DNA from: Candidatus Fokinia solitaria
Lineage (GTDB): Bacteria > Pseudomonadota > Alphaproteobacteria > Rickettsiales > Midichloriaceae
Assembly (NCBI RefSeq): GCF_003072485.1
Contig: NZ_CP025989.1
Location: forward strand, 540,001 to 572,000
DNA length: 32,000 nt
Direction of reading: 5' to 3'
In this document: in pieces, positions 6,001 through 28,021 of the stretch
Position numbering within the stretch: position 1 is the stretch's first letter
Layout of the letters: each line of letters starts with the position of its first letter
The notes under the pieces: model-generated
Database searches by the model: none
Seen by the model: the letters and a program-made list of their open reading frames with translations, nothing else
What the model was told of the DNA's origin: nothing
Translations under genes and position numbers: made by a program

Positions 6001-9000
6001 TGCGCAAGACATTTAGGGAAAAGTTCAGAGTAATAAAAATATTTTTCAGCAAAATCCTCCATGCTCTTCATATCGTATCTTTCGCTGATCGCTGCAAATG
6101 CAATAGTTTGCAACGGTATATACTCAGGAACGATCTCATTCGCACCTTCTAACAAATTAGATTCTTTTGCACTAACTATAAAGCGTGCATATTGCTCTTT
6201 CAAAAGCGCGACAAACATTTCTGCAATATCGGCTTGCTTCATATCTAATTTTTGCGTTACGTACTCTTTAAATTCATCGAAAATACCTTGTAAAGCTCCT
6301 AATCCAAATACTTGACTTAGCACTTGATCTTTTACTAAGAAAGCATGCATAGAAGATATATCACCAAACTGCTCAGCTGAAATATTACTTAATTTCTCGC
6401 TCAGATAATCATGAATACGTTTTACACTAGATTTAGATAATTTCTCTGGTACAAAAATTTCATTCCATTCAACACACTGCATTTCAGCAAGTAACGCTTC
6501 AATACGCTGCATTTCGTTACTATTCGCTCTGTCTTGATATTTCATAATATTACCATTTCTCAAAGAGCAAGATACGAAATTGGTCAATACTTGAGCAGCA
6601 AGCTGTTGAGAAAGTGAAATTTCTACATCCACTTCCAATAGTGGCGCCATAAACGCCTTATTGATATCACTGACATGTAAAGATACAGCATTTGAGAATA
6701 AACGCGCTGACGAATGATGTTGTATCACTGTATCAGTAAAAGCATTCTTAATAGCACTAAGATCGTTTACGATACTAGATAATTTCTCTTCTAAAATTTG
6801 AAGTGATAGCTTGCCTCCATGTGCTTCTTGCAGTGCATTGATACTTATACCTTCTCTACCTGTAGCAGCAATAGATAACTGATTAACGACAACAATGAAA
6901 AGATCTATCTTCTCTCTTGTCGTAGCATCAGAACGCGAATATGTGGAGAATATAGTATGCGCAAATTCCGAAATTACATCTTTCATTCCGAAGTGAGACG
7001 GAATCATCTTTCCTAATCTTTCTCTGAAAGACTCTGTATTAGGAAACTCCTCTGCACCTAGCTTATGCACTACATCTGCAATATTTTGCCAGAAAGCTTC
7101 TACGATAGAATTGGAATTTCTTTCGATCGCTTCTTCAAGTTTTACATCACTATCATCGCTAAAATCACTGCTATTCTTCAGAGCATTGAGAACACCATCA
7201 AAATCATGATGCCATTTACCATACGTTTTCTTCAACTCATTTCCATATTTCTCATACTCTTTACTGTTCACCATGCTTAAGTATGCCATTTTTACTATCT
7301 CACTAAATGACATATACTTTCCTGCTGCGTACGAATCCGATATCGTACGGTATTGCTTCGTAAAAGTATTCCACCAATGTTCTCTATCTAGCGTAGGCTT
7401 ATTAAACCAATTATTTCGCAAGTAGTTATCTTTGATATTTTTAAGAGTTTTAAAATTCTGCAGCTTATCATTTTCTGACAAAGTGCTATTTTCACTATCA
7501 TATTTCAACAAGTATCCTACTAAGACTTTCAACTCATTAGCTATTTGATGAGTATTTTCTATTTCTCGTACTACAACTCCTTGGTGGATCAAATCTGTAA
7601 TTTTCTTTTGTACTTCAGTTCTTATGCTAATTAAAAAGTCATTCTCAGTAATATAATCTTTACCAAAAACCTCTTTTACTATGCTAGATATCTTATCTTT
7701 ACTTTCATTCGCGAAGGATACGCTACCTCTTGCTGCAGTTTCTACCTCTCTTATGTCCAAATAACGAAATGCATCTGTCATAAATTTTAGAGCTTGGCGC
7801 ATGATTTCGCTGTAATATTTTCCTGGCAAAGCAAGTTTTTTGAGAGCTGTTGCTAAGTTTATATAATCTACAAATCTATTTTGGAAAACAGTTTTGCTTT
7901 CTTTTGACGTAACATTCAAACCAAACATTCCAGCAGTATGAATACTTAAAGCACGAAATTCTGCTGCATCTTCTACTAATAATCTGGCATTTTTCTCAAA
8001 ATTCGCCAATTCCTTATATATTTCATCTCTTGCGCCAATGAAGAAACGTTTCATTTCTGCCTCACTTAGTGAAGCTCCACCTAATGTTTTCTTCCATTCA
8101 TCTAAGGTATTATAAGTCGCACTTACTTTCGAAGTTAAGGCATTTCCCGCTAAATCTTCTATAGTGCTATCATAAATTTTACTGATATTATCCATCGCAT
8201 CGCTGATGAAATTTCGTACTCCAACATTTGTGCTGGTAGTAGATAATAGAACAGCTTCTACGATAGAAGGAGAATCTTTAGCAGGTACCGCAAAGAAGGA
8301 CGTTAAAGCTTTAGCAAAAAGCTTATCTGCTGGAGTTCTATTTTTATCGTCTTGTAAAAGAGGAAACGATGCACTATGAGATAACTGCGACGTAACGCCA
8401 AAGATTGATAAATCTGTATCTGACATCGTAGCTGACGCTCTATAGCCTGTTAAAGCACGAGGAAGCTCTTCTAAGAAAAGCACATCATTAGCTTTATCGT
8501 TTATCACTTCCATAAATTCTGCTTTCGTATTCCTTCTTCCTTGCCCCGATTCAAGTGCATTAAAAGCATCATAAGCAGATAATTGCATCAACTCTTTGTT
8601 GTATAAAAACTGATATTGCAAGGCTTCGTAAGCATCATAAAACGATAAAGACTTTATCTCTTTAAAAAGCGGATATTTTAAAAGCTCTTCCTGTGATTGG
8701 ATAAAATTCTTACCATTTACAGCATCTCTGTAAGATATGAGACTTTGAAGCATCTCTCTTTCTTTCACTAAAGCAGGGTTAAGCTCTTGCAATAAAGATT
8801 CAATTAGCTCATTAGCGCTATTCGCATATTTGCGATGCTCTTCCGTAATAGGAGATAACTTTTTCATAGTCCCCTTTATATCTTTTAGATATCTTGCTAC
8901 AAAAACGTTGCCTCGAGAAAGATTCTGAGAAAGATCTTTCCAGAATTTAGTAACTTGCTCTTCGAATTGCTGTAAATCAACATTAAAGATCGTAACAAGC

Positions 9001-12000
9001 GCTTCTAGCTCTTTTAATAATCTTGACTCACTATACTGCTCACCATCAGCAATAAGTTCTCGTACACCTTTCAACAACTCTGTAGCGCCAGCCTGATTAT
9101 CTTTCGCGACATATGTACTATCAACAAATTTTCGTAAATCTTCAAGCAATCCTTCACTATTACTTTTCCTACCATTTGCAATAATTTGTTTCAAATTCTG
9201 CAGAAACTCTGCAGCTTCATTCCAGTTATTATTAACTGCATTAATATCGATAGACGATTGCAAAGTATTTAATAATATCTTCGCATTTTCTTGTCTATCT
9301 TCTAATACACTTATATAGCTATTAAGCAATTTACTTCTCTCTTGAAAGCTGAAGATTTCATTTGATATAGAGTCTAAATATGAATTAATTATACTTTTAC
9401 CTTCTGCTAATTTTCCTAAATCTACTACACTTTTATCAGTAGTAAGAGCGTCACGTATTGCTTCGAAACGCATATTGAATGACGGATTTGTCTTATCGTT
9501 TGATATCTCCTTTAAAACAGTAGAAGTAGAATTAAGAATTGAACCATCATCCGCAACAGCTGCTTTCAAAAATGGTACCGCTTCATTTATAATATCGCTT
9601 TTCTTCGCTTGTAGCACTTGTTCAAATTCTTTAATAACCCTCTCTATTGTAGCTCTATTACTTTTATTAACTAAAATCATCAATTCTGATTCTTTATATC
9701 TGTCTACTATACCATGGTAAATATCAGAGATAGTAGCAACTCCTCCACTGATATATAAATCTACTTGATTGATAAATGCTTTCACAGAACTGCTATCTTC
9801 CGCAGTAGTAAATTGAATAACATGCTTCATAATCTGCAATATCTTTTCCAATTGCTCCTTCTCTTTGATCATTTTCATCACTTTCTCCGGCAAAGTATGA
9901 ATGAGCTTATCTTCTAAAGCACTAAACTCACTTCTCATATTCGCTACATCTGTGTCAGACAATATCGCTTTACTAGCAGCTAATTTATCAGCAAAATTCA
10001 AATCCGTCAAAAGAGCAGCTCTACTTACATTCGATGCTATTGTTGAGAATAATGGATCATTCCATAGAGTATCATCAACCTTTACTGAGTTACCTTTCCA
10101 TGCCTTATAACTATTTTGTAAACTAGTAACTTTTTCACTAATTTTAACGCACATCCATTTCTCTTCAGGTGAAATAGAATCATACTTATACTGTATCTCT
10201 TTCTTCGATGCCTCTTTTTTTGAAGTTGCACTCTGAGACTGTTTTATAGCTTTGAAAGCTTTATCCTTTACCAGCTCTACCACTGCTGAATTACCGCTAT
10301 AAACTTTCTTCACATATCTCTCAACTAAGTCCATTTCCGCTTGTATTATATACTCACGATATCTGTCTCCACTATCTATAGATGCCCATAATACAAGGAA
10401 TAATTTATCAAGAGCGACTTGCTTCCGATCGCTACTAAACCAATTTGTAAGCGCTTCTTTTACTACTAAATTTTTGTTTTCCGATAATCCCAATTTTCCA
10501 AGGTACTGTATAATTGCATCAGATGTCTCCTCTTTATCTCGAAGCGCTAATAACAGACGCTCACAGATTTCTTGATCAGACTTATACGGCCAAACATGAG
10601 AAGATGCAGAATCACCTTCTTTTAGATAAGAATACAGAGATTCTACCTCTTTTCTTAGAATTAAACCATCTTTTGAGTAACTACTATCTTTCCAAGCATT
10701 TTCAAGCTTCTGTACACTCTCATCAAAGATCGCTTTCTCTTTCTCATAAGAAGGATGAGATGTAAATAACAGCGAATAATTTTGAATTAGCTTATTAATA
10801 TCTTCAACGCTTCTACTTAGTCTGTCATATAAAACTCTTTGCGCCATACTCAGCACAAAAGTTATATCAAATACGGAATACCGTTCCGCTGCTTTATCCA
10901 CAATTCCTATAATTACTTCATATGCTTCACTCTCATTTATCTCTTTTTTCAGTAAAAGATCTTTCAATGCAGCAGGAGTGATAATATCAGCATTACTTTT
11001 ATCAAATAAATTACTTAACACTGAATCAATATTATCTTTTCTTTGTATAAAAGAATTTACTACCTTTTGCATCTCTTTTGCATAGTGCAAACGATATCCA
11101 GTATAATCATAAAGCGCTAGCTCGCTACTATCAAATTTTACATCAGAAACGTCACATACTGCACCATTATCGTACTTCTTAAATTGTGAAAAATTGAATA
11201 TAGTTTTAGAAATACATTTTTGACGAATATAATCAGCAAATGACTCACGATCATTTCCAGAGCACCTCCTTCCTTCATCTAAGATTTGCTGCCGTAACTC
11301 CGCAAATATGAGATTATGTGATAATTGTAAAGGTAGATTTTGTTCCTGTTCCAATAGTTCATTCTTCAACTCCACTGCAATCTGTTCAGAAATCAGTACA
11401 TCTTCTCTAGCTAATGATATAATAGCGTCATTTACATCAAATTTTTGATATAACGCAGAATCAGGCAGCATATTACCAACGCTTTTCAAATTCTTTTCAA
11501 ATTGCGCTTGAATATTCTGTACTTTTTCTAAGACCAAGACGTATTCATTATGTATTGTTGTATAAATGTTTTTCTCTCCGCTGCGCACACCATCTAAGAT
11601 TAGCTTAGCTTTTTTCTTTTGATATTCATTTAATAATACACGCGCTTCATTTTTTAACTGCAGATGAGATAACTTCGTATAAGAATGCTCTAAATTATCG
11701 ATAAGAGAACCGATAGATAAATCATCAATCTTCGCTTTTAATATATTACTATATGCCGTAATTAATTCTTTAATAGAATCTGACATATCTTCATTATAAG
11801 CAACTTCATTAACATATCTTTTATAATTAATTTCCTCTATCTCATCTTTGATTTTTCCTAAAAGAGCTGTGAATCGTTCTTTATTACTATTAAAAGCTGA
11901 AGCTATCTTATTTTGTTCTTTATTCACCAACTCTATGATATCACCTCGCTCCATTAATAATACGTCCTGATCATACTTTTCAAGCGAAGCTAAAAGAGCA

Positions 12001-15000
12001 CTTCTTATACTATTTGCTTCAAGTATAAGCGCAGCTTCTACAGCATCGTAATTTCTCTTAATATTACCTATCGCTATCTTCATCTGATTCTCTTGAGTAG
12101 AAATAAAACTATTCATCTCCACTTTTAAAGCTTCCATTTCCTTTAGCGCTTCCTTAGTTTCGAAAGCTTCATACTCACTAAATTCCTTCATCTTTGAAAC
12201 ATAATTTTCAAAAGGTTCAAGGGCAAGCTTCACGCTATTAGATTCTGTTAAAGGAGCAAAGTTGAAATTTTGAAATTTCAAGCTTTTGAAAAGCTCTTTC
12301 ATAGATATATCAGTTATCGCTTTCTGAAATTCAGCATAAATCTTCACAACATTCTCTCTCCATTCACGAATCTCAACTTTTATATAAAGATTTTTGAGTT
12401 TTACATCAATTGCGGTAGTAGCCTTATCCAATGCATCTCTGGAAAGTGCAATTTTAGACGACAAATCTTCGATTTTCGCTTCTGATGAGAATTTATGTAA
12501 TTTTCGCTCTATAGCTTCAACTTTTCTTTTAAATACAGCATCCCATTTGCTTATAGCGCTCTTTTCAGCTTCTAAAACTTTAATATGAACTTTATGATTC
12601 CTTACATGCTCAGAAGTGATTCTTAAGTTAGTACTGATAACTTCACGCAAGTTGAAGCCTTTCGTATCTTCTGCTACATCTCTTCCATCGTCAATATAAC
12701 GTAATAACGCATATAGCTCTTTTCCAATTTCATGAAGTTCAGTGGTAGCAAAACCAAAAATATCTAAATTTTTGTAATACTTCTCAGATAATTCGTATAC
12801 ATCTGCAATTTTAGAATCACATCCTAAGCTTTCATTATTCGAAAAACATGATATTTGACGTAATTCTTGTGCACTTTTAAGTTTATTATCTGCAATAAAT
12901 TTCTCTCTGACTTGCTTCACTCTACCCTTTGCTTGTTGAAACCACATAGCGATCATAGAGGTAGCGCTAAAATCTTTGATTAATGTTTTCTTAAAAAGAT
13001 CGAGTTCTTGCGCTAACTTACCACTATCCTGTAACTCTATTATGTATGAAGCATACTGCGCAACCTCTAATTCTCCTCTACTCTTTTCTATTACTACTTC
13101 GATAGGTGCGTATAATTTATCTTTCATCCCAGCTTTATAAGATGAAATACTCTTATGCAATTCTTCTAATGATTTTCTGTGCAATATACTTCCTCCTATT
13201 GAAGATGGCTTTAGTATCGATGATAAAACACCTCCTTCGTTATCGCTTTGCGATTGCTCAGATGCTCCTAATTGCCCATTCAAGAGTCTGACATGAGCTT
13301 CTATTTTCTCCAATAGAGTATCCGCCTGCTCTTGAGAATTAAGACTATCTTCTTGCAAAATATCTCTTAATGTATCATCTCCACTTTGAACTCTCTCTTC
13401 AAGAATAGAATACCAGCGCGCTTTTTTATCCATAACAATAGAAAGAGCATCACTGCGTGAAAGAACCTCTTCAAGCGTCTCTTCAAATTCCTTTAATACC
13501 GCAATTTTATCTCCTAATTCTCGTTTTTTGCTTTCATAATCTTCTACTTTATGTGCTGTAGCTTTTTGCTCTTCCAAATAATTTTTCAGTCTCTCATCTG
13601 TTATCAAAAGCGCATCTTTAGTGATATTTGCAAAAAATACATCATTCATCAAAGAAGATAAACTAGCCTCTGCTTCCTTTAATTTGATATCAAATTGTTC
13701 TTGGGTATTTTCTAGCAATTTACTGAGAGCTGCTATCTCTTTTTCTTTTTCATGTAACTCACTCGATGAATACGGAATAACTGCTAAAAGTCTTAACGAT
13801 TCAACTTTATCTCTCTGAGAAATTAATTCTTTCTGCGTATCTTCGATTGCTTTCTTAAAGTCTTCAACAACTCTATCGCGCACTTCTCCCAGAGCACTCA
13901 TGCACACATTGAAGTTATTGATAACAGATAACCCTAAATCAGCAGCTGCAACACTGCCATATATCATCTGTGCTCTATGAATTTGCTCAACATTATCGAC
14001 TCTAAGTTCAATATCACCAAGTACATCCATATTATAAGATTTCCACTTTTTAATACTCTGCAAAAGCTCTTTTTCTCTCTCTACCAAGTTATATTGCGCA
14101 ATTAAAGATGTTCGTTCATCTGCAAGTGTCTTAGCTATTCTATCTGCGTCATGCTGATCTTCCACTCCTTTTGAAAGAGATTCATCCTGTTTAATCAACT
14201 CATAAGCTTCCTTGATTAATAAAGCATTCACCTGTATTGCATCCTTCCGATATTCAAAGATTTCTTCTTCTATAGAAATGAAATCTCCAAACTGCTCTAC
14301 ATGCAATTTTTCATTTAATAATGCATCTTGCACACTTTGCCACATAGTGCCATTTATCGCTGCTTTTTCGAGATTTGACATCTCTATGTTGAATTTCTCA
14401 GCTTCTACGGGATAGCGCAATACATGTTGCCACAATTTCTCTCCTATCTCTTTTTTATTACTTATGCCACTAATTATCTTCTTTATTCTATGGAATTTTT
14501 CACTTTCTTCATTAGTGAAGAATTCTTGTATAACGTCTATCATCGATCTCGTTATATAGCCGGTAGCACTGAATGACATTACGCCTTCTTCAGTAACAAG
14601 ATCGCCTAATGCTGCATTTATATCCTCTTTTGAACATCTACTCTGTTCATCTTTACATTCGATAAACAACGCTTCTAATTTCTCCGTAGCTTTAATTCTC
14701 TTACTTTTCTCAGCATCTATTGCTTTATCAAAAATAGCTATAGCTTTTGGCTGAAGTGTATATACTAGTTCATCAAATTCATCATGTAATCCTATAATAT
14801 CGTCAACGTTTGTTTTATGTAAAAGTGCTATCAATTTATTATAGAGTTCCTTACTTTCTTTATTTGCTTTCCACCAATTTCCCTCTAAAAGCGACTTTAC
14901 TTTATTATCTACATTAGCTAAATAACCATAAAAATGCGTACGAACTACATCAGAGAATGAGTTACCTATAGCAGCCTCTTTCGAATGAGATACTGTATAT

Positions 15001-16499
15001 TTAATGCCATGCCTTTTGTCATGATTTTTGATCTTATTAAAGAACTCTTCTTCAGTAGTAGTAAATTGCTCTTGTAGATCTTCGAAAATCTTCTTAGCTT
15101 CTATGTATTGAACCTGTTCATCAATATTCTCTTTCATTTTTACGAATTCGTCACTTTTCTTACTCCAAGTTATAATAATATCCTGAAGCTTCTTTATCAT
15201 TATCGATAAATATTCCTCTTTTACTTTTACAAAATATCCATCAAACGTAATATCAGAAGTAGCGTCATTCCAAGATATGCACTGTTCATCTTTCACAAAT
15301 ATATTAGAGTTCGCTAAATGATTTATTCTCTGCCCAACTTCTATTATAAATTGACATTTTGCTTTTAATTCACTTTCTCCAGCTTTCAATAAGCTATCTA
15401 CTTTTTTTCTTAATTGCTCATCTTTCTCATAACTACTATGCGAAAGATCTTGAATCGCTTGAATTCCTTTATAACTAGGAAATTCAGCTTCTTTAAAAAA
15501 TTCTTCAAGACGTTTAAATTCATAAACTTCCATAGTAAATTTTTCTACTATCTTCAGCACCTCTTGCCTTACAGACGATATTTTTGATGTTGTATAACCA
15601 GCAATAGCTTTACAGAAAGTTTCTGCATCTGCAGCCCATTGTAATATCTCGCCAATTAGTGCTTTTCGCGGAAAAGTTGAAGATAACATCTCTTTTTTAC
15701 CACTTCTCTCTACGATCACAATTCCATTTAATGCTGTTCTCGAGATAGTCTTCAATAACGTTTCTAAGTCAAGTATTTTTTGTTCAGATTGCTCCTCGAG
15801 TACGTTCACAAGATCTCTCAAAGCAACACTATTACGTTCATTCTCTATATTTGCACTACCTGTAAAATAACCATTTAGCGCAAACTCAAGATTTACCTTT
15901 AGAGAAGTAGATTGTACGAATGATGCATCTTTCCGATTCTTTCCAAAAAGTGCTATCAATTCTTTTAATGATTCTTCAGAAACATCATAGAGATTCACTG
16001 CATCAGAAGAAACAAAAGATGAATCTTGCAGTGTTGAAAATTTCTTCTCTAAAGCTATACGCTTATTTAGATATTCATCATATTGTGAGAAGCTGGTAAT
16101 TTTATCGAATAATTTCGCAAATAATGCAGCATTTTCACGATATACGCTACCCGATAAAGTACCTTTAAAAGAAATTCCTTTGTTTAATGTGCTATAAAAT
16201 TCACTAAATGAATCTGACACAGTCTGTATCATTGCAAGATTCGCCTTACTCGCTTTTTCTAATTCAGAAGAAGCTAATTTTACTTTATGATACACGTACA
16301 TCTCTATATCTAGAGCTGCTTTTAAAAATTGTAGTAATTGTGCCAAAAGTACAATTTCAAATTCTGATGCGCCTTCTTTCGCTTTTTCTTTTTTTATTAG
16401 ATTTCCAAAAGTCACTTCGGCAGAACTTAACGCGTCGAATAAAGAAGCTCTTGCGCTTTTCATTTCAGCGGAAAATTCTTCACTTTCCATAATATATTG
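1..16499 (-). other. Giant protein aa ~1518 to beyond 7016: very long Glu/Lys/Leu/Ser/Ile/Asn-rich region, apparently alpha-helical or coiled-coil
   Basis: My running hand translation shows few Pro, Gly, Trp or Cys residues and many heptad-like Leu/Ile spacings. One checked example is RLLLALRDKEETSDAIIQYL at 10500-10559. The plus strand is dominated by ttc, ctt, tct, atc and agc triplets, which are the complements of Glu, Lys, Arg, Asp and Ala codons. The secondary-structure assignment is by eye only. Confidence 0.4.
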
Positions 16500-19400
16500 C
16501 TCCAACTCAGAATTCATTACATCGCTTCCTCTTGATAGCTCTTTTCCTGTAGCGATTTCTATCAATTTACTCTTATAAAGATATCCACTGCCATTATCAT
16601 TAGGAAATTTCACCTTTCCAAAATATTTCTTCGTATCTTCGATCTCAATATTAGAAGGCACTACTGAAGTATTGTATCGTGTATATAACTGCGTTACGAC
16701 ATCATCATCTACTGAGAACAGTTGTATATTTTTTTGCTCCATTACAAATAAGAGATGTTTCACTCTACCACTGTCTTTCAGATGAGATACAAAAACATCA
16801 TACTCGGCATCACCTATAACGAGTTTTACTCGCTTATACTGCAACAGTGCAGCACTAATATCTAATGTAGTACTTTCAGTAATAATACTGTCAAGTATTT
16901 TATAGAAATCATCATGCTGTACACTAAAATCTCTGCTGCTAAAACGACTATCACCAATAATTACTGTACCTCGCGTAACATTACTCTCAAATAAATTAGA
17001 CTTAACGTATTCTTCATCGCCTACAACGACAATAGCATCTTCGATATTGAAAAGACCGTCCTTTCTGTAATACGTATTACGCGAAGAAATCTCTAATCCA
17101 AGAAATTTTTTCACACCACCTTTTACAATGCCGTTCAAATCGCCTAGCACTGCATAAGCACTGCTTGCTAAAGCCTTATCTGATACTTTTTTCACTTCTC
17201 TTCTATTGGCAACATCAGAAAATACTACATAAAAGTCCTCTTCATTATTTTCAAAAACCAAATACACATTTCTTTCGTCTTTTTCATATTCATTAAGCGA
17301 AAATTTCAATGCAAGTTGCTTATTAGAAACAGCATAACATACGACGTCTTTGATATTATGCAAAATAAAAGCACCTCCAATACCTTTTAGTATTTCTGCT
17401 ATTTCTTTACTTAATACGTGAACATTTGGTTTTCTATCCATTAGCCACTCTAAATCCATAGCAGAAAGCTGTCCATCTGCGACTTTAGCAAAGCCCATAA
17501 TAACATCATCACTAAAGTCGTCTACTTTACCAGATAATGCATTAACTTCATTGGTAAATGCTAAATTTTCAGAATATTGAACTTTAGCTCCTTTCTCTAC
17601 TTTACCATTATTAATGATATAACAATCTACATCCTGTGACTCTCTGAAAAGCATCACTGCATGCTCAACACTATCAGCATTGATAACAATTACATAAGAA
17701 TCTTTGTTATCCACAGTATTAGTATATTTGAGCACTTTATAAGCTCCTACAGTAATTCCGAATTTTTTACTGAAAACATCTACTATGAAATGATTCATAT
17801 CTTCTAAAAATTTTTCCTTTTCTATCTCACTAATCTTATCATCAAGATCGCTTTGCCTAAATTCTGAATATACCATACCGTTAATAAGGCTTATTATTGC
17901 ATCATTTGTCGCAAAAGAACGCGGTATGTTTAGCACGTGATCTGGTTCTCCGATAAATTGAACCATCTTGCTGGAAATAACATCATCTACATAATGCTGC
18001 ACTTTTCCAGCGTCATCGATATAATATAAACCTCTACCACCTTCCTCATCTGATATATGCATGATTGATTCATTTTGAGTCATTCCGCTCTCACTTCCAG
18101 AATGAGATATTACAATAATACGCACAGTACCGCTTTCGATAATAAGATGCGCAAAGCTTTCTCCCTCAAATTTTCCAAATTTGCCATTCTCCTTACTTCT
18201 GTCTACTATTTCTGATAAAATACGCTCATTGTCAGACTTTTGCACAAAAATAAGATCTTCTTGAGTATCTTGAGAAATACCGTTATCCGCAGCATCTTCA
18301 AATTCAGAAGGATTTTCATCTCCTCCTACTTCTGATGTAGTATGATTGTAATTAGACTCTTGCTCGAAAGTAGGTTTTTGCTCAGTATCTTGGAAAGTAC
18401 CGTTATTCGCAGCATCTTCAAATTTAGAAGGATTTTCATCTCCCCCTACTTCTGATGTAATATTGTAATTAGACTCTTGCTCGAAAGTAGGTTTTTGCTC
18501 AGTATCTTGGAAAGTATCGTTATTCGCAGCATTTTCAAATTCAGAAGAATTCTTATATCTTCCTACTTCTGATGTAATATTGTAATTAGACTCTTGCTCG
18601 AAAGTAGGTTTTTGCTCAGTATCTTGGAAAGTACCGTTATTCGCAGCATCTTCAAATTCAGAAGAATTCTTATATCTTCCTACTTCTGATGTAATATTGT
18701 AATTAGACTCTTGCTCGAAAGTAGGTTTTTGCTCAGTATCTTGGAAAGTACCGTTATTCGCAGCATCTTCAAATTCAGAAGAATTCTTATATCTTCCTAC
18801 TTCTGATGTAATATTGTAATTAGACTCTTCCTCAGAAATAAATTCTTCTTCAGTACCTTGGAACTCTTCCTCAGGAATAAATTTTTCTTCAGCACCTTGA
18901 GAAATACCGTTATTCGCAGCATTTTCAAATTCAGAAGAATTCTTATCTCCTCCTACTTCTGATGTAATATTGTAATTAGACTCTTGCTCGAAAGTAGGTT
19001 TTTGCTCAGTACCTTGGAACTCTTCCTCAGAAATAAATTCTTCTTCAGTACCTTGGAACTCTTCCTCAGAAATAAATTCTTCTTCAGTACCTTGAAAAAT
19101 ACCGTTATTCGCAGCATCTTCAAATTCAGAAGGATCAATACTACCAATTGATTGCGTCTCCTCTAAATCCAGGTGTCCAATAGCAAAATTTATCACTGCT
19201 CTTCTACCATCATCAGTACTCATCATGTCGTACTCTGTAGGAAGATCTTTAGATTCAACACAAAAAGAACGTAGATTGAATGTAAGTTCTACAGCGCCTA
19301 CTAACTGCACTGCATTATCATCAGCATGATATAACGTATACCCTGACGCATCTTTAGAAATTAAGAATAAATCATCAATTACATATAACTGAGTAGTAGT

Positions 19401-21050
19401 CTTCGAATGAGAAGCAGTATTCTTAATAAATACACATCGTAATTCTGCATTAAAAACTTCTATACCAGCCTTCTCACATAATTGACGATAGAAATCTCTA
19501 TAACGCTCTTCATCACCTTCCTTCCTATTACTAACCTCTCTTTCATCTTCAGTAATATAATGAATAAGCTCTTCATCACTTTGCTTTTTACTCTCAACAT
19601 CCTCTCTCCTACCAACATTCTCTCTTCTTTTATTATCAGCACTTTCATTAGTAATATCTAATTCAAATAAACTTGTAATAAAGCTCTCAGACATTAGCGA
19701 TATTTCTTCTGTTTTCGCAGTAAAGAAAGGAATTTTTGAATGAGGCGATTTAGAGGAATAACATCCATCACCACAGTGAGTACTAGCGCTCTTAAGCTCT
19801 ATAACAGGCTGACCATTATTCTCTGTAACATAATACGCAGTATAATGATCATCTTTAGTAAACATGATAATCAACTTGCTATCATTACCTACATTGATAT
19901 TTAAAGTCCAAGCAATAGCGGTATGATCACTTTGCTCTACCACTTTAACAATATAGTAATCGCTTAATTTTACAGAACTATCCTTTTTAAAATCTTCAAG
20001 TGCACTTTTTATAAATTCTCGATATTCAATATCTTGAAAATATAATTCAATTGAAGCACCTTTTCTCTTCAGCCGAGGTAATGACAATAATTGAGAAGGT
20101 TTAAAATCATGAGTAGTAAAATCTAATTTTTCATCAACAAAATACACGTCGGACAAAGAGATATTATAGCCAAAGAATTCTTGATCCTTTCCTTTTTTTA
20201 TCGCCTCCCAAAAAGCAAAATTCCACAAATTTTCTACATCATCCTTGAAACTTCCTAAAGAATCATATTCTCGATCATATGCTGTTATAACTTCATCATC
20301 TTTTATTGAAGTTGCTACTATCGTAAACTTCTCTTTATCGTTTCGAGAAAAGATTAAATACAAATCCTTCGAAATTTCTGTGCTAAGTCTAACTGCTATA
20401 AAATTAGCTTCAATACTTGAAAATATATAATGCGATACAGATTTGAGCGACTTCTTAATATCTAATTCTTTAGCAATTTCAGTAATAATATCATTTTTTG
20501 GCAGTGGCTCTTTCTGCATATTCCCTCCTTCTATCATATTTACATCTAAAGCCTCTGCTTCTACATATTTAAGCGAAACACCTTCAAAAACCATCTTAGG
20601 AAGATAAGAAGGGATTCGGCCAATATCGCCTTTTCCTCTTACTTCTAAGAGCTCCTGCTGATTAAATTCTTTTATCAATTCCGCGTATGTAGCGTCAAAA
20701 TCTTTTGCATATTTTAGCAAGAACGCCTGTTCGATCTTCTCTTCACTCGCATAGTACGGTGCAATATTCTTTTTTCCGATTTCTACTATAAAGTACCCAT
20801 GCTCATCACGAGCAATCGCGTAGTACGATTCTTTAAATCCGCTACTAGTCTTATTTTCATCTTTAGATTTGCTACTCTCATCTATATATTTCACAAACTT
20901 CACATCTTCTTCCGGAAGAGAATCCATCGTAAAATTCACCCCTCTTTCTTCATATCGCTCTTTAAGTTTCTTCAAAAGCGAATCACTAAAAGGTAATTTT
21001 CTCAAATGTTCATCACCAAAAGAAGAGTCATTCTTCGTATGCTGTGTCAT
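1..21050 (-). CDS. Giant protein of unrecognised family, with at least 7,016 codons inside the window; its C-terminus lies beyond the left edge
   Basis: The start is ATG at 21050-21048 (reverse complement), with an in-frame upstream TGA at 21101-21099. Hand translation begins MTQHTKNDSSFGDEHLR. Minus-strand codons occupy plus positions 3n..3n+2. I checked this frame by hand and found it stop-free at 3-59, 5040-5081, 10500-10559, 15000-15041, 17571-17639, 18000-18191, 18600-18719, 19008-19046, 19302-19349, 19740-19928 and 21000-21050. Any in-frame stop inside the window would create a complete ORF of 60 aa or more starting at 21050. The track would list such an ORF, and it does not. The only minus-strand ORFs listed in this span (18953..19147, 19460..19648) are in a different frame. 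Confidence 0.88.
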   Translation of the reverse strand, partial: MTQHTKNDSSFGDEHLRKLPFSDSLLKKLKERYEERGVNFTMDSLPEEDVKFVKYIDESSKSKDENKTSSGFKESYYAIARDEHGYFIVEIGKKNIAPYYASEEKIEQAFLLKYAKDFDATYAELIKEFNQQELLEVRGKGDIGRIPSYLPKMVFEGVSLKYVEAEALDVNMIEGGNMQKEPLPKNDIITEIAKELDIKKSLKSVSHYIFSSIEANFIAVRLSTEISKDLYLIFSRNDKEKFTIVATSIKDDEVITAYDREYDSLGSFKDDVENLWNFAFWEAIKKGKDQEFFGYNISLSDVYFVDEKLDFTTHDFKPSQLLSLPRLKRKGASIELYFQDIEYREFIKSALEDFKKDSSVKLSDYYIVKVVEQSDHTAIAWTLNINVGNDSKLIIMFTKDDHYTAYYVTENNGQPVIELKSASTHCGDGCYSSKSPHSKIPFFTAKTEEISLMSESFITSLFELDITNESADNKRRENVGRREDVESKKQSDEELIHYITEDEREVSNRKEGDEERYRDFYRQLCEKAGIEVFNAELRCVFIKNTASHSKTTTQLYVIDDLFLISKDASGYTLYHADDNAVQLVGAVELTFNLRSFCVESKDLPTEYDMMSTDDGRRAVINFAIGHLDLEETQSIGSIDPSEFEDAANNGIFQGTEEEFISEEEFQGTEEEFISEEEFQGTEQKPTFEQESNYNITSEVGGDKNSSEFENAANNGISQGAEEKFIPEEEFQGTEEEFISEEESNYNITSEVGRYKNSSEFEDAANNGTFQDTEQKPTFEQESNYNITSEVGRYKNSSEFEDAANNGTFQDTEQKPTFEQESNYNITSEVGRYKNSSEFENAANNDTFQDTEQKPTFEQESNYNITSEVGGDENPSKFEDAANNGTFQDTEQKPTFEQESNYNHTTSEVGGDENPSEFEDAADNGISQDTQEDLIFVQKSDNERILSEIVDRSKENGKFGKFEGESFAHLIIESGTVRIIVISHSGSESGMTQNESIMHISDEEGGRGLYYIDDAGKVQHYVDDVISSKMVQFIGEPDHVLNIPRSFATNDAIISLINGMVYSEFRQSDLDDKISEIEKEKFLEDMNHFIVDVFSKKFGITVGAYKVLKYTNTVDNKDSYVIVINADSVEHAVMLFRESQDVDCYIINNGKVEKGAKVQYSENLAFTNEVNALSGKVDDFSDDVIMGFAKVADGQLSAMDLEWLMDRKPNVHVLSKEIAEILKGIGGAFILHNIKDVVCYAVSNKQLALKFSLNEYEKDERNVYLVFENNEEDFYVVFSDVANRREVKKVSDKALASSAYAVLGDLNGIVKGGVKKFLGLEISSRNTYYRKDGLFNIEDAIVVVGDEEYVKSNLFESNVTRGTVIIGDSRFSSRDFSVQHDDFYKILDSIITESTTLDISAALLQYKRVKLVIGDAEYDVFVSHLKDSGRVKHLLFVMEQKNIQLFSVDDDVVTQLYTRYNTSVVPSNIEIEDTKKYFGKVKFPNDNGSGYLYKSKLIEIATGKELSRGSDVMNSELEQYIMESEEFSAEMKSARASLFDALSSAEVTFGNLIKKEKAKEGASEFEIVLLAQLLQFLKAALDIEMYVYHKVKLASSELEKASKANLAMIQTVSDSFSEFYSTLNKGISFKGTLSGSVYRENAALFAKLFDKITSFSQYDEYLNKRIALEKKFSTLQDSSFVSSDAVNLYDVSEESLKELIALFGKNRKDASFVQSTSLKVNLEFALNGYFTGSANIENERNSVALRDLVNVLEEQSEQKILDLETLLKTISRTALNGIVIVERSGKKEMLSSTFPRKALIGEILQWAADAETFCKAIAGYTTSKISSVRQEVLKIVEKFTMEVYEFKRLEEFFKEAEFPSYKGIQAIQDLSHSSYEKDEQLRKKVDSLLKAGESELKAKCQFIIEVGQRINHLANSNIFVKDEQCISWNDATSDITFDGYFVKVKEEYLSIMIKKLQDIIITWSKKSDEFVKMKENIDEQVQYIEAKKIFEDLQEQFTTTEEEFFNKIKNHDKRHGIKYTVSHSKEAAIGNSFSDVVRTHFYGYLANVDNKVKSLLEGNWWKANKESKELYNKLIALLHKTNVDDIIGLHDEFDELVYTLQPKAIAIFDKAIDAEKSKRIKATEKLEALFIECKDEQSRCSKEDINAALGDLVTEEGVMSFSATGYITRSMIDVIQEFFTNEESEKFHRIKKIISGISNKKEIGEKLWQHVLRYPVEAEKFNIEMSNLEKAAINGTMWQSVQDALLNEKLHVEQFGDFISIEEEIFEYRKDAIQVNALLIKEAYELIKQDESLSKGVEDQHDADRIAKTLADERTSLIAQYNLVEREKELLQSIKKWKSYNMDVLGDIELRVDNVEQIHRAQMIYGSVAAADLGLSVINNFNVCMSALGEVRDRVVEDFKKAIEDTQKELISQRDKVESLRLLAVIPYSSSELHEKEKEIAALSKLLENTQEQFDIKLKEAEASLSSLMNDVFFANITKDALLITDERLKNYLEEQKATAHKVEDYESKKRELGDKIAVLKEFEETLEEVLSRSDALSIVMDKKARWYSILEERVQSGDDTLRDILQEDSLNSQEQADTLLEKIEAHVRLLNGQLGASEQSQSDNEGGVLSSILKPSSIGGSILHRKSLEELHKSISSYKAGMKDKLYAPIEVVIEKSRGELEVAQYASYIIELQDSGKLAQELDLFKKTLIKDFSATSMIAMWFQQAKGRVKQVREKFIADNKLKSAQELRQISCFSNNESLGCDSKIADVYELSEKYYKNLDIFGFATTELHEIGKELYALLRYIDDGRDVAEDTKGFNLREVISTNLRITSEHVRNHKVHIKVLEAEKSAISKWDAVFKRKVEAIERKLHKFSSEAKIEDLSSKIALSRDALDKATTAIDVKLKNLYIKVEIREWRENVVKIYAEFQKAITDISMKELFKSLKFQNFNFAPLTESNSVKLALEPFENYVSKMKEFSEYEAFETKEALKEMEALKVEMNSFISTQENQMKIAIGNIKRNYDAVEAALILEANSIRSALLASLEKYDQDVLLMERGDIIELVNKEQNKIASAFNSNKERFTALLGKIKDEIEEINYKRYVNEVAYNEDMSDSIKELITAYSNILKAKIDDLSIGSLIDNLEHSYTKLSHLQLKNEARVLLNEYQKKKAKLILDGVRSGEKNIYTTIHNEYVLVLEKVQNIQAQFEKNLKSVGNMLPDSALYQKFDVNDAIISLAREDVLISEQIAVELKNELLEQEQNLPLQLSHNLIFAELRQQILDEGRRCSGNDRESFADYIRQKCISKTIFNFSQFKKYDNGAVCDVSDVKFDSSELALYDYTGYRLHYAKEMQKVVNSFIQRKDNIDSVLSNLFDKSNADIITPAALKDLLLKKEINESEAYEVIIGIVDKAAERYSVFDITFVLSMAQRVLYDRLSRSVEDINKLIQNYSLLFTSHPSYEKEKAIFDESVQKLENAWKDSSYSKDGLILRKEVESLYSYLKEGDSASSHVWPYKSDQEICERLLLALRDKEETSDAIIQYLGKLGLSENKNLVVKEALTNWFSSDRKQVALDKLFLVLWASIDSGDRYREYIIQAEMDLVERYVKKVYSGNSAVVELVKDKAFKAIKQSQSATSKKEASKKEIQYKYDSISPEEKWMCVKISEKVTSLQNSYKAWKGNSVKVDDTLWNDPLFSTIASNVSRAALLTDLNFADKLAASKAILSDTDVANMRSEFSALEDKLIHTLPEKVMKMIKEKEQLEKILQIMKHVIQFTTAEDSSSVKAFINQVDLYISGGVATISDIYHGIVDRYKESELMILVNKSNRATIERVIKEFEQVLQAKKSDIINEAVPFLKAAVADDGSILNSTSTVLKEISNDKTNPSFNMRFEAIRDALTTDKSVVDLGKLAEGKSIINSYLDSISNEIFSFQERSKLLNSYISVLEDRQENAKILLNTLQSSIDINAVNNNWNEAAEFLQNLKQIIANGRKSNSEGLLEDLRKFVDSTYVAKDNQAGATELLKGVRELIADGEQYSESRLLKELEALVTIFNVDLQQFEEQVTKFWKDLSQNLSRGNVFVARYLKDIKGTMKKLSPITEEHRKYANSANELIESLLQELNPALVKEREMLQSLISYRDAVNGKNFIQSQEELLKYPLFKEIKSLSFYDAYEALQYQFLYNKELMQLSAYDAFNALESGQGRRNTKAEFMEVINDKANDVLFLEELPRALTGYRASATMSDTDLSIFGVTSQLSHSASFPLLQDDKNRTPADKLFAKALTSFFAVPAKDSPSIVEAVLLSTTSTNVGVRNFISDAMDNISKIYDSTIEDLAGNALTSKVSATYNTLDEWKKTLGGASLSEAEMKRFFIGARDEIYKELANFEKNARLLVEDAAEFRALSIHTAGMFGLNVTSKESKTVFQNRFVDYINLATALKKLALPGKYYSEIMRQALKFMTDAFRYLDIREVETAARGSVSFANESKDKISSIVKEVFGKDYITENDFLISIRTEVQKKITDLIHQGVVVREIENTHQIANELKVLVGYLLKYDSENSTLSENDKLQNFKTLKNIKDNYLRNNWFNKPTLDREHWWNTFTKQYRTISDSYAAGKYMSFSEIVKMAYLSMVNSKEYEKYGNELKKTYGKWHHDFDGVLNALKNSSDFSDDSDVKLEEAIERNSNSIVEAFWQNIADVVHKLGAEEFPNTESFRERLGKMIPSHFGMKDVISEFAHTIFSTYSRSDATTREKIDLFIVVVNQLSIAATGREGISINALQEAHGGKLSLQILEEKLSSIVNDLSAIKNAFTDTVIQHHSSARLFSNAVSLHVSDINKAFMAPLLEVDVEISLSQQLAAQVLTNFVSCSLRNGNIMKYQDRANSNEMQRIEALLAEMQCVEWNEIFVPEKLSKSSVKRIHDYLSEKLSNISAEQFGDISSMHAFLVKDQVLSQVFGLGALQGIFDEFKEYVTQKLDMKQADIAEMFVALLKEQYARFIVSAKESNLLEGANEIVPEYIPLQTIAFAAISERYDMKSMEDFAEKYFYYSELFPKCLAHTEASFISSSWKSENEVAVRNYCNNLLRNEGKNPDDYTEVVSLFSSAIYRIREDIGVDALIGGVYNAQIIQDIKEYVFRDGVLDFEKYALGTVENNFVRSFAAKLKKSVAIPKVEKEKIEKEVEVITKRRDSLSKSVKDFEKVQQSLGGIYATVSEYSEAKSELNNYKKHFDENTAEILKNLRTVIHLGVVRANKDIATLFKELGLGDFSIKDSSSFKAQVQKRFNKETQSVTEEVDYSLGTLTAKEPEEFKAAITSLRQKVTEQQWNILGSAIFNSYQSYKAPSAEKMIGALKSLSTYELCDIADRIGISARNQVMPDIYSFLRAFAEKIVANGEDFLEDFVLTAEEFDKIKDALEKAQVRGDDVIRNPNIDVNILDIDDEAFLKSLGDTQYRLADLLSIVAKEDNDAIEWLNDNLNNKEKEKLIRAVVASYEATDSKIGDTIGVIGRISNYLSSYFIDPSEENAIHRAALQKRLSNIQYKSEESEKNMKRDISRFIETQVEKLFSLVVEMAKHLDGDNDMVNAQDLFSLVDIMEKSLIAHEAISSDFSKEIHDAADSLKKLETVSFKVKTIWSYLRDDEPVSLMSTIYSEMKNYLHQSASAERMFIESNNKALDIKEMFVRLLEQFDVIPQRFLQLDIEQRDKSIAEYIAEREEENSDIAGTTVLRQVFSFLKLFNADSRLVSAIHKIIEDNEPSYNPKMMIGDAMIEELFSVQQRAEVIDEAIAVYDKWYSENNGNIITAAEAAENSSIIEDLDKQIAERQEKLKVLNEQLSEEIVTQNINNFNTTHINIRAEELIYGNLKDVLADKDFANILSDAKMIASYPHFIKFLDNVLLYKTNKKENSINYIKKMEDALSAFLKVCKMIASLSKYEIFNVDILKFDDIDSVAKLIAKLDLSNIQLISDEGGKTDKALQSLQSALISKLQQIKDIVSDGAAELRTLKTASIPLSEFAATDATIFAFLKNENSMAFGYSAFLSCPVEGTHGFANIAERQYPFSIELQKSSNSYNVEYLLADMNTKMSEEKAKECGIDKIPDFLKLVCEKTFPRDKDRDDKAQHGADNEYFKRLQRTEDESSAKLSVDIKNLQNLSGQLVNYIKKELQDGNIKSYEDVQSLVAKDEKYSPSIQQLISKINGDCEYATISCRTLDVNGIIANIDSAPLLAFNEHARAISIANALNDHLMKLCRAHEKDFSDGIEQELLQRVSVIERAFKVLIEQEKWRLSSEMKLFEMQKADPSNHETIDKYRSLLNELLQHRLSEKSEMEAIKYYEQSHIVQRRAEIEYLEKELKSIDKVNDVTFSSKIDDILSSFRTEYQHMQDAREYYYSYHTKQMRDTVVSQQKEFTELLSQKLAPLSLNADSSLGGSDSVTGVDSELREKLKEDVETAKTDRYNYIQLSNFAKKNGIGMHSLEMIQAVSWVYSYYNVDYRAYRTSSGDWTAKQKEDMISKSNANMNKFIAGRNLASGELDISMQKIRQLVTSMYNDDISYFRKEMEKAYALVAKSLTEYVTSYKFELKAEHSDLRTSYYMNVLKQSAAAEASRLEKFYLTDIMKVLEGHKKSLVEVERYNDVKDKYELIAKNQQKLQDGLLKPISNYESTVNYSAVREYDSAIAQCGSMLRKLENLEQKASQLSKKEETIREEIGQNKGWSGKKNEYIAFSREIESLGNTLPSGNSCEKVVPFNDERVMNYSKVLQFILQENARKIESKKQTIHTLLSNKVREMQTYLAHREHMEALDNVERLLEKSTKALNEKILKITPLIINNAIDIAVYESYVAAARDDVKNSAEYAVMKELCHNRYSDDCDEVDNRVSNFGASIIGDLRSVAMVVGSEYAEALKKLSTETELVAQRIGKLTMLEEKDIRSAEDELDSSINSINEISYGRAVTNSNNLELHKILLLELQSKFAVAKSKAIEQINNNFVMRREYVSLSKYVIFDAQNKEFRQDENVKNDIWLIVRDGFRKSMEFNVQSCLSDVRHFTEQRITMPSKYKMREKDISGMEQ
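16500..18263 (-). other. Giant protein aa ~930-1517: second block of beta-hairpin-like modules (head, part 2)
   Basis: Three stretches were translated by hand. ENGKFGKFEGESFAHLIIESGTVRIIVISHSGSESGMTQNESIM lies at 18060-18191, MHISDEEGGRGLYYIDDAGKV at 18000-18062 and SQDVDCYIINNGKVEKGAKVQYS at 17571-17639. They share the motif of an aromatic strand followed by an Asp/Asn-Gly turn seen in head part 1. Confidence 0.45.
18264..19135 (-). repeat. In-frame nested tandem-repeat array inside the giant CDS: five 117-bp units, one 120-bp variant and three 39-bp units, encoding acidic 39-aa and 13-aa repeats
   Basis: The anchor motif ag(t/c)a(t/c)ctt recurs at plus positions 18264, 18384, 18501, 18618, 18735, 18852, 18891, 19008, 19047 and 19086. 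The spacings are 120, 117, 117, 117, 117, 39, 117, 39 and 39 bp. The 39-aa unit, translated from 18600-18719, is EQESNYNITSEVGRYKNSSEFEDAANNGTFQDTEQKPTF. The 13-aa unit, from 19008-19046, is EEEFISEEEFQGT. Units 18501-18617 and 18618-18734 differ at only 2 of 117 nt. Confidence 0.92.
19136..21050 (-). other. Giant protein aa ~1-638: hydrophilic N-terminus with no Sec signal or TM segment, followed by beta-strand-like modules (head, part 1)
   Basis: Two stretches were translated by hand. DHTAIAWTLNINVGNDSKLIIMFTKDDHYTAYYVTENNGQPVI lies at 19800-19928 and ASGYTLYHADDNAVQL at 19302-19349. Both show alternating hydrophobic strands followed by Asp/Asn/Gly turns. The first 17 residues are charged or polar. 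Confidence 0.45.
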
Positions 21051-21354
21051 TGCTTTTTGCAAATGTGTATCAAAAGTATCAAGAGGATAGTACCATAATC
21101 ACCGATCTAACACATTACATTTTTTCACATTTTTCTTTACTAAAGTGCAGGTAGTGTTAATTTTAGAATAAATCGCAACTATCTAATGCATTATTTCGCT
21201 ATATAATTCGACTTCATACTTTATTCGAGCCATTAAGAAGTAGTATTTATATCACTCTCTTATCTTTCAAAAATCTCTCTATTTCAAACAAAGCAAGTTA
21301 AAAAGCATTCTGATTATGAACATCTTTTCGCATCCATATTCTTAGTATATATCA

Positions 21355-24291: not shown

Positions 24292-25296
24292 TTATTTCAA
24301 ATTCTTCACATCGCTTACTGATACCGATATAAGGATTGCTATAATAAACACAAAGCCGAGGAAGAATAGAATTTTTTGGACATTTTGCGGGATTCTCTTC
24401 TTAAATAGTAAGAGGGTGATAAAATCTAAGAGACATATTACAATATTTCCTCCATCTAAGCCTGGAATAGGAAGTAAATTAAAGACACCTAGATTAATAG
24501 AAAGCACCGCCATGAAGAATAGTAGCGCTGGAAAGCCTTTCTGTAAGATAGAATGAACTAAATTCGCAACGCCAATTGGCCCTACAATTTCTGCCTTCTC
24601 ATCCTTGTTGAATGCAGTTTTTAGTAACATAGGTATACCTGAGAATACTTGCTTGCACATTATAACTGTATCATTAAGACCGCTTTCGATAGAGCTGAGT
24701 AAACTTCTTTTCACGGTAATATTTACTCCAAGTTCTGTCAAATGATTGACTGTTGTAGAAAGTACCACATTATTATCTCCTCTCTTTACCAAGATTACGA
24801 GATCCTGATTATCTTTGCCGTAGAATGCGCTAATCTCAGACATACTTTTTCCATTCACTGTTAATATCACGTCACCTTTTATAATGCCAACTTTCTCAGC
24901 TACAGATTCGTGTTGCACTCCTAAAACAATTCCTTCTTCGTAGTAATTCGATATGTATATCGAAGTAAATACCAAGATTACGCAGGAAAGCAGAAAATTT
25001 GCTAACGGCCCACCTATGCATATAAAAGCTCTTATAAGAGGAGATTTGTTTTCGTATGAATGTGGATCACTCAAACCGTCTTGCATTTTCACATACCCTC
25101 CTAATGGAAAAAGAGCTATTTGCCATAATACTCCTGCAGAATCTTTGTATCCGAACAATTTACGGCCAAATCCGAAAGATACAACATTTACTTTTACTCC
25201 AGATATTTTCGCGGCAACAAAGTGTCCTAATTCGTGCAACATCACAATAGGAAACAGGAAAAGCAGCAATTCTACAAACATCCACAGTGCTTCCAT
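24292..25296 (-). CDS. rseP: RIP site-2 zinc metalloprotease RseP (M50 family, single PDZ domain)
   Basis: The ORF is 334 aa. It carries the HELGH zinc motif in the first TM helix, a PDZ-like segment (GIIKGDVILTVNGKS) and the NLLPIPGLDGG motif. It sits directly upstream of bamA, which is the canonical arrangement. Confidence 0.85.
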   Translation of the reverse strand: MEALWMFVELLLFLFPIVMLHELGHFVAAKISGVKVNVVSFGFGRKLFGYKDSAGVLWQIALFPLGGYVKMQDGLSDPHSYENKSPLIRAFICIGGPLANFLLSCVILVFTSIYISNYYEEGIVLGVQHESVAEKVGIIKGDVILTVNGKSMSEISAFYGKDNQDLVILVKRGDNNVVLSTTVNHLTELGVNITVKRSLLSSIESGLNDTVIMCKQVFSGIPMLLKTAFNKDEKAEIVGPIGVANLVHSILQKGFPALLFFMAVLSINLGVFNLLPIPGLDGGNIVICLLDFITLLLFKKRIPQNVQKILFFLGFVFIIAILISVSVSDVKNLK

Positions 25297-27654: not shown

Positions 27655-28021
27655 ACTTACTTCTTCCAAGCTTTCTCTCCGCTTCCTACTTTGAAGCTTT
27701 TCGCGCTGTAACTTAGTATCTTAAAAAAAACGTCAGCGTTTCTAGTATGACTTTGATATCTAATATGTCTTCTTGAGGGATATATTCCGTATTTCTTTTC
27801 GGTAGTAAATTTTCTAAAAAATGCTACTTACATCGCATAAAATCATATTCGTAAAGTTCTTCCTAAATGAGAATATGTATTATTTATTAAATCGATAAAG
27901 ATATAATAGCAATGTTATTGCAATGTCAATTTTAAACATATAGAATAAAACTATATTAAAAAATAAGACGTTTTGAATTATTTTTTATCTCATTGTTTTT
28001 TTAACATTTTTTTCTACTGTC

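Follow-up and report, generated by a model that had tools for sequence, protein, structure and literature searches.

Giant bacterial proteins with an end-piece of tandem domains are known. The type I-secreted adhesins of the LapA, SiiE and MpIBP type exceed 5,000 amino acids (aa) and contain many small tandem domains; they lack an N-terminal Sec signal and have a specialised N-terminus. The Giant1–5 proteins of Apilactobacillus kunkeei span 3,000–8,000 aa and account for several percent of a small symbiont genome (PMC12863079). Candidatus Fokinia solitaria, a Midichloriaceae (Rickettsiales) endosymbiont of Paramecium, has a genome of 837,348 bp (PMC5905368). Here, we describe the N-terminal head of Fsol_00512, a giant protein of this organism, whose gene begins in the stretch of 32,000 nucleotides (nt) that was analysed (contig NZ_CP025989.1, positions 540,001–572,000; hereafter the window).

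The Fokinia protein is similar to the adhesins in giant size, in its tandem small domains and in lacking a Sec signal. It differs in having no BIg, cadherin or RTX repeats, and its repeats are confined to the N-terminal fifth. With Giant1–5 it shares a distinct N-terminal region, which in those proteins is a domain predicted to bind ligands, placed on a long, elongated remainder (PMC12863079). Their heads, however, are β-solenoids related to serine-rich-repeat adhesins, in proteins of the extracellular surface (PMC12863079), whereas the Fokinia head comprises alpha+beta units of no known family and has no detectable export signal. The Fokinia protein is a genus-specific form of this theme, made of a unit that matches no described family with the tools used.

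The head covers the first ~1,520 residues of the giant protein, which is restricted to the genus, and would be organised as beads on a string: eight units of 125–175 aa, split by a flexible, fast-evolving acidic spacer and each centred on one amphipathic helix and a five-stranded antiparallel β-meander (four-stranded in unit M1). This structural part of the account, a string of eight alpha+beta units, is likely to be correct. All eight units would share one fold and one ancestry, and they most likely arose through old internal duplications and then diverged almost past sequence recognition. The array as a whole may serve as an end-piece that binds proteins or ligands multivalently, on a protein that is long, soluble and non-Sec, and a multivalent interaction platform would be the most economical reading of the architecture; for the binding role our confidence is low. 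Array, ancestry and binding end-piece together make up the explanation that we favour, with moderate confidence.

Fsol_00512 (AWD33306.1 / WP_108673324.1) is annotated as a "hypothetical protein" of 7,555 aa. It lies in a single minus-strand open frame of 7,032 codons that runs from 21098 to the left window edge. The annotated start is the ATG at 21050, the protein begins MTQHTKNDSS, and the database entry is identical to the window translation across all 7,016 window-encoded residues. The window holds the 5' 21 kb of the gene, which in full measures 22.7 kb and occupies 2.7% of the genome. The head ends near residue 1520 (window 16491), just past the highly conserved KKYFGKVKFPNDNGSGYLY stretch.

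Within the head, one pattern can be read by eye eight times: an amphipathic helix followed by short hydrophobic strands that are divided by polar turns. The eight modules (M1–M8; Table 1) lie four on either side of an acidic tandem repeat, and each is assigned as a helix plus a four- or five-stranded antiparallel meander of ~75–85 aa within a unit of 125–175 aa. The original prediction, made from the sequence by a model, had proposed about eight β-hairpin-like modules in this region, as a rough count, and had quoted six peptide strings. All six strings were confirmed at their coordinates, and the count holds, as eight modules could be delimited on both sides of the tandem repeat. The recurring unit also stands, although not as a two-strand hairpin: since the strings span β3, β4 and the β4–β5 turn, only the last third of a larger module had been noticed. 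The Asp/Asn-Gly turn that was said to close the second strand does map to the β4–β5 turn. A regular expression (regex) for the motif gave four matches in the head against 0.14 expected and none in the body, a count that is post hoc and circular, and it gave none in the head of the orthologue described below, so that the turn itself is not conserved.

Evidence for the larger module comes from structure prediction with AlphaFold2 (AF2). M6 (residues 1078–1165, 88 aa), modelled with an alignment of 20 modules, was predicted as a helix followed by five strands (H-E-E-E-E-E), with a mean predicted local distance difference test score (pLDDT) of 83.7 and a predicted template modelling score (pTM) of 0.69. 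Residues 1–640 were modelled separately with an alignment that held three orthologous blocks of Candidatus Fokinia crypta only and no cross-module alignment. A helix followed by four to five strands was predicted in all five modelled modules, with five strands in M2, M3, M4 and M6 and four in M1. M5 was delimited by its hydrophobic pattern, by alignments and by strand positions conserved in the orthologue. Strand positions are conserved more generally between F. solitaria and F. crypta, at 29–55% identity. Here, the original prediction of a modular globular head is borne out to the extent that the N-terminal ~1,520 aa appear, from the models, to be a modular region that is predicted to fold.

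Table 1. Features of the Fsol_00512 head and its surroundings, in window coordinates
Feature	Position	Strand	Residues	Elements and remarks
Giant gene Fsol_00512, 5' part	3..21050	minus		7,016 of 7,555 codons; runs off left window end
N-terminal head	16491..21050	minus	1–~1520	Eight alpha+beta modules with conserved linkers between them, and one acidic repeat
M1	20754..20984	minus	23–99	Helix 23–35; four strands 50–57, 73–82, 85–91, 96–99; block pLDDT ~40–70; AF2 with DSSP; conserved in both F. crypta copies
M2	20268..20492	minus	187–261	Helix 187–195; strands 204–210, 217–223, 228–235, 241–248, 254–261; strand pLDDT 64–77; AF2 with DSSP; resembles F. crypta unit 7
M3	19776..20027	minus	342–425	Helix 342–354; strands 362–368, 381–387, 391–398, 402–411, 414–425; pLDDT ~40–50; AF2 with DSSP; carries KLIIMFTKDD and AYYVTENNGQPV
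KLIIMFTKDD	19848–19877			β3 of M3
AYYVTENNGQPV	19803–19838		405–416	M3 β4, turn, start of β5
M4	19287..19514	minus	513–588	Helix 513–528; strands 539–545, 552–558, 561–565, 570–576, 581–588; pLDDT 57–82; AF2 with DSSP; carries GYTLYHADDNAVQL
GYTLYHADDNAVQL	19302–19343		570–583	M4 β4, turn, start of β5
Acidic tandem repeat	18249..19130	minus	~641–934	39-aa units; Tandem Repeats Finder, self-blast and composition; between units 4 and 5
M5	17985..18230	minus	~941–1022	Inferred; carries TVRIIVISHSG and LYYIDDAGKV
TVRIIVISHSG	18096–18128			In M5
LYYIDDAGKV	18000–18029		1008–1017	In M5
M6	17577..17816	minus	1079–1158	Helix 1079–1097; strands 1101–1111, 1116–1125, 1130–1135, 1140–1147, 1150–1158; AF2 with 20-module alignment; carries CYIINNGKVEKG
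CYIINNGKVEKG	17589–17624		1143–1154	M6 β4, turn, start of β5
M7	17181..17420	minus	~1211–1290	Inferred; its orthologue resembles the modelled M2
M8	16677..16910	minus	~1381–1458	Inferred from sequence pattern and orthologue alignment
Conserved stretch KKYFGKVKFPNDNGSGYLYKSKL	16563..16631	minus	1474–1496	Head/body junction; orthologue alignment
Spacer between bamA and giant gene	21051–21354			~300 nt
bamA	21355–23985	minus		
rseP	24292–25296	minus		
377-aa open reading frame	25569–26702	minus		Between rpiB and rseP
TrbC/VirB2-type pilin gene	28022–28378	plus		118 aa; PF04956, E 2e-16; on the strand opposite to brnQ, whose end it overlaps
Mechanical open reading frame	27985–28353	minus		Overlaps the pilin gene; probably no gene

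An exhaustive phmmer search with residues 951–1560 against 1.84 billion representatives returned the protein itself, an orthologue in F. crypta and a spurious protein with fibronectin type III (FN3) repeats. The last of these (P0003) was rejected, as the match is a local one of 39 residues to β1–β3 of M6 that was summed over seven near-identical copies. The sole homologue found is thus WPX98059.1, a protein of 7,997 aa that is encoded at positions 10001–33994 of the F. crypta locus L001 (CP110343.1); the CP110343.1 record labels it 'synaptonemal complex protein 1', a name supported by no result here. No further relatives were found in GTDB genomes (scanned with the head and with BamA), in JGI metagenomes (searched with the two-species alignment) or by tblastn in phages and plasmids. 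Word-indexed searches with the whole head, with residues 1–625 and with the 20-module profile also returned nothing, a weak negative, as the query's own entry was missed as well. In collinear blastp blocks, identity to the orthologue is 25–42% in the head and 31–46% in the body, and gene order is shared by both species (ClpX ... BrnQ-TrbC ... RpiB-unknown-RseP-BamA-giant). By this collinear similarity and the conserved site downstream of rseP-bamA, Fsol_00512 and WPX98059.1 form a Fokinia giant-protein family. M7 is the best-conserved module (55% identity to F. crypta), and KKYFGKVKFPNDNGSGYLYKSKL is among the best-conserved stretches of both Fokinia proteins (KKYxGKxKFPNDNxxGYLY).

In the orthologue, the head carries twelve modules, compared with eight in F. 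solitaria. Here, the M1–M3 block is duplicated (37% identity over 445 aa, E 9e-73) and M3 has been duplicated once more alone (M3b vs M3c, 40% over 124 aa). These block and single-unit duplications indicate that the units behave as evolutionary modules.

The two halves of the array are separated by the acidic tandem repeat, which is near-perfect: Tandem Repeats Finder placed it at 18264–19097, with period sizes 117, 156 and 39 nt and 94% matches at the 117-nt period. Residues 641–945 contain 78 Asp or Glu against 16 Lys or Arg, and the spacer is probably disordered. The F. crypta orthologue has no counterpart of the repeat at that position and bears S/T/N-rich repeats elsewhere, at its residues 505–685; low-complexity spacers therefore turn over fast and independently of the folded units. 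Acidic tandem-repeat effectors of Rickettsiales are represented by TRP32, TRP47 and TRP120 of Ehrlichia. The likeness to these applies only to the Fokinia spacer (residues 641–934), likewise a tandem repeat that is strongly acidic and evolves rapidly. Sequence similarity is absent, the Fokinia protein is 10–30 times larger, and its folded modules have no counterpart in the TRPs.

At the level of sequence, recurrence appears to exceed chance only marginally. In window-by-window blastp the acidic repeat was strong, while between modules E values of only 0.005–0.1 were reached. Leave-one-out hidden Markov models (HMMs) of the eight modules, each compared with 300 shuffled decoys, placed M6 and M8 above all 300; the module was exceeded by one decoy for M2, three for M3, 25 for M4 and 55 for M7, so that four of the eight modules were recovered at no more than 3/300 decoys. 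When whole groups were left out of the full set of 20 modules (our eight and the orthologue's twelve), the result was weak: only groups 1, 3 and 4 partly beat the decoys, and M5 and M8 were not recovered. The module HMM had no matches in the body beyond residue 1560, and the module is, on this evidence, confined to the head.

Further support came from profile–profile comparison with hhalign, using profiles of orthologue pairs. The pair G2–G7 reached E 4.3e-5 (score 31.2) and the pair G3–G4 E 1.7e-3 (score 22.2), with a maximum score of 20.1 among 468 control pairs that included body segments. Unit 2 of F. solitaria and unit 7 of F. crypta are 26% identical over 122 columns, with E values of 2e-7 pairwise, 1.25e-5 in the unit database and 2e-4 in head-versus-head blast. 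Reversed-sequence unit decoys gave blastp E values of 1e-4 to 0.03 (unit 3, for instance, matched its own reverse), and for this reason weaker hits were disregarded. Weak internal similarity scores are inflated because the hairpin-rich head sequences have a quasi-palindromic hydrophobic pattern. Sequence repeat detection, one of the two tests attached to the original prediction, was thus largely negative, with one clearly significant pair; structure prediction, the other, gave ordered modules with the same order of elements.

Several observations weigh against the beads-on-a-string account. The AF2 models cover M1–M4 (residues 1–640) and M6, and M5, M7 and M8 are assigned from sequence pattern and weak similarity. 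The M6 alignment presupposes that the modules are related, the model of residues 1–640 has a mean pLDDT of 50.1 and a pTM of 0.30, and M3 is particularly low in confidence. A common fold was judged by the order of elements only. Most module pairs have no significant sequence similarity: the remaining 26 pairs in the hhalign comparison fell within the control range, and M1 and M5 were not recovered at all by the leave-one-out HMMs. In addition, the modules were initially chosen by eye, and HMM tests on them are partly circular. Overall, statistical support from sequence alone is thin, and the predicted structures support the account reasonably well, though incompletely.

The most probable of the alternatives is that the meanders belong to a small number of larger composite domains, such as an M1-M2-M3 super-unit of ~450–480 aa with meanders and linker helices packed against each other, and that the small modules are over-segmented. 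The linkers would fit this, as they are as conserved as the modules (30–44% vs 29–55% identity to the orthologue) and are predicted, in the model of residues 1–640, to hold further helices and short strands. Consistent with this, the M2/M7 similarity extends ~45 residues beyond β5, into helices and an 'SxxDVYF/Y' hairpin, and the M1–M3 block of F. crypta was duplicated in one piece. M3, however, was also duplicated alone, as a unit of ~125 aa, and M6 is predicted to fold confidently as an isolated piece of 88 aa, while the low pTM of the long model lends no support to fixed packing between modules. We regard composite domains as rather unlikely.

A second alternative is that the modules are very divergent members of the PepSY-like or cystatin-like folds, and that the array regulates or inhibits proteases or enzymes. 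PepSY and cystatin folds have one helix followed by a four- to five-stranded antiparallel sheet that ends in a polar hairpin, and the topology of the module resembles them. A comparison can be made with the tandem PepSY proteins (PF03413) YpeB and YpmB of Bacillus, which likewise have small tandem units, a helix before a short antiparallel sheet and a last hairpin with an Asp/Gly-type turn. Weak Foldseek matches point the same way: the model of residues 1–640 matched the tandem-PepSY proteins YpmB (9a5z_A, E 0.035) and YpeB (C-terminal domain, 5boi, E 0.057) as well as fetuin-B (7uai, a cystatin-domain protein, E 0.25), and M6 matched a cystatin-derived Affimer (6stj, E 0.65–0.73, template modelling (TM) score 0.28–0.32, root-mean-square deviation (rmsd) above 12 Å). 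None of this reaches significance, as Foldseek against PDB and BFVD returned nothing at E 0.001 or better, and the named hits have probabilities of 0.06–0.23, TM scores of 0.06–0.32 and rmsd above 12 Å. For M6, the best PDB match was a different one, to the KhtT N-domain (E 0.16, TMq 0.47), over ~60 residues only; in BFVD the best TM score, 0.67, was to an uncharacterised Fusobacterium phage protein (E 0.07). PepSY (PF03413) gave no hit when the 1,517-aa head was searched with E up to 0.1 and each of the 20 modules in isolation with E up to 10, and Pfam cystatin models likewise gave none. No Pfam or NCBIfam family matched the head or any isolated module; the body and the C-terminus (last 655 aa) were likewise without a match, and sequence-profile searches of the PDB matched no chain. 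Cystatin-like membership was rejected, as the structural matches (6stj, 7uai) are weak only and there is no Pfam cystatin hit. The modules also have five strands where PepSY has four, and the Fokinia units come first in a 7,555-aa protein that has no signal peptide or membrane anchor. A divergent PepSY-like or cystatin-like array is accordingly judged improbable.

That there is no true repeat, and that strand-like strings and Asn/Asp turns recur through convergence or predictor habit in the I/Y/N/K/F-rich composition of an AT-rich genome, is very improbable: most leave-one-out tests were non-significant, reversed decoys came down to E 1e-4, the orthologue does not conserve the turn and β-meander strings align easily, as the spurious FN3 match shows, but 6,000 body residues of the same composition give no module-like hits and no regex match, the six-element order is predicted in M2, M3, M4 and M6 (helix and four strands in M1), the M2/M7 similarity lies above all controls, and strand positions are conserved across species at 29–55% identity.

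Known classes of giant or repeat-containing protein were also considered and set aside. Arrays of FN3 or Ig-like domains do not fit M6, which is modelled as an N-terminal 19-residue helix and a five-strand meander, and there is no Pfam fn3 or Big match. For a type I-secreted RTX giant adhesin, the four segments of the window and the C-terminal 655 aa all lacked a Pfam family, and there are no C-terminal GGxGxD runs. A Rickettsiales autotransporter of the Sca type was rejected because the N-terminus, MTQHTKNDSSFGDEHLRK, has no hydrophobic core and the C-terminal 655 aa gave no Pfam hit (PF03797).

No signal peptide, membrane segment or secretion motif was found in the giant protein, nor RTX or autotransporter features. 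Kyte–Doolittle means over 19 residues peak at 1.53 in F. solitaria and at 1.64 in F. crypta, too low for a membrane helix, and the protein is, by this measure, soluble. The original prediction contrasted the head with a long helical body; here, helix-periodic windows are ~2 times as frequent in the body as in the head, a weak signal, and Chou–Fasman and hydrophobic-moment profiles do not separate the two convincingly.

In electron microscopy, F. solitaria was surrounded by a rim that is free of ribosomes and contains fine fibrils, and it had a fibrillar 'tail' (PMC4701390). Conceivably, the units are an undescribed domain family that forms the host-facing, multivalent binding end of an exported giant fibril protein, which would make up the rim and 'tail' in the Paramecium cortex; export would then use a route without a Sec signal, and the acidic repeat would serve as a flexible or entropic spacer. 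We give this extension very little credence. F. cryptica was described as having no halo and living in a vacuole (PMC5118934), and as it has the orthologue yet no halo, a simple link of the protein to the fibrillar rim is weakened.

Upstream of the giant gene, on the same strand, lie bamA and then rseP, followed farther upstream by rpiB, brnQ, a TrbC/VirB2 pilin gene on the plus strand and clpX. As the pilin gene shows, type IV secretion components are encoded ~7 kb away from the giant gene. Neither Pfam nor NCBIfam gave a match for the open reading frame of 377 aa that lies between rpiB and rseP, and at the counterpart position in F. crypta (L001 4451–5596) there is a gene of 381 aa, also without a Pfam match; this is a second conserved orphan. 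A promoter and terminator scan of the spacer between bamA and the giant gene found nothing convincing, and Rfam, tRNA, promoter and terminator scans found nothing relevant. In many alphaproteobacteria, skp and lpxD-fabZ-lpxA come after bamA at the position that the giant gene occupies here. Synthesis of lipopolysaccharide (LPS) was reported as lost in F. solitaria in the genome paper. The giant gene is mentioned neither in that paper nor in the papers that describe Fokinia.

An 837-kb genome that lacks the tricarboxylic acid cycle, LPS and flagella still retains an open gene of 22.7 kb, and the sister species keeps a syntenic version of 24 kb at 25–46% identity, from which it follows that a use for the product is almost certain. 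Within this protein, recognisable modular architecture is confined to the head, which is therefore the natural handle for finding binding partners. If the units were to prove only a divergent PepSY- or cystatin-like array, the result would be an ordinary improvement in annotation. Should they turn out to be a new domain that is autonomous, fragments of 10–15 kDa would offer a tractable entry into the biology of an otherwise opaque orphan.

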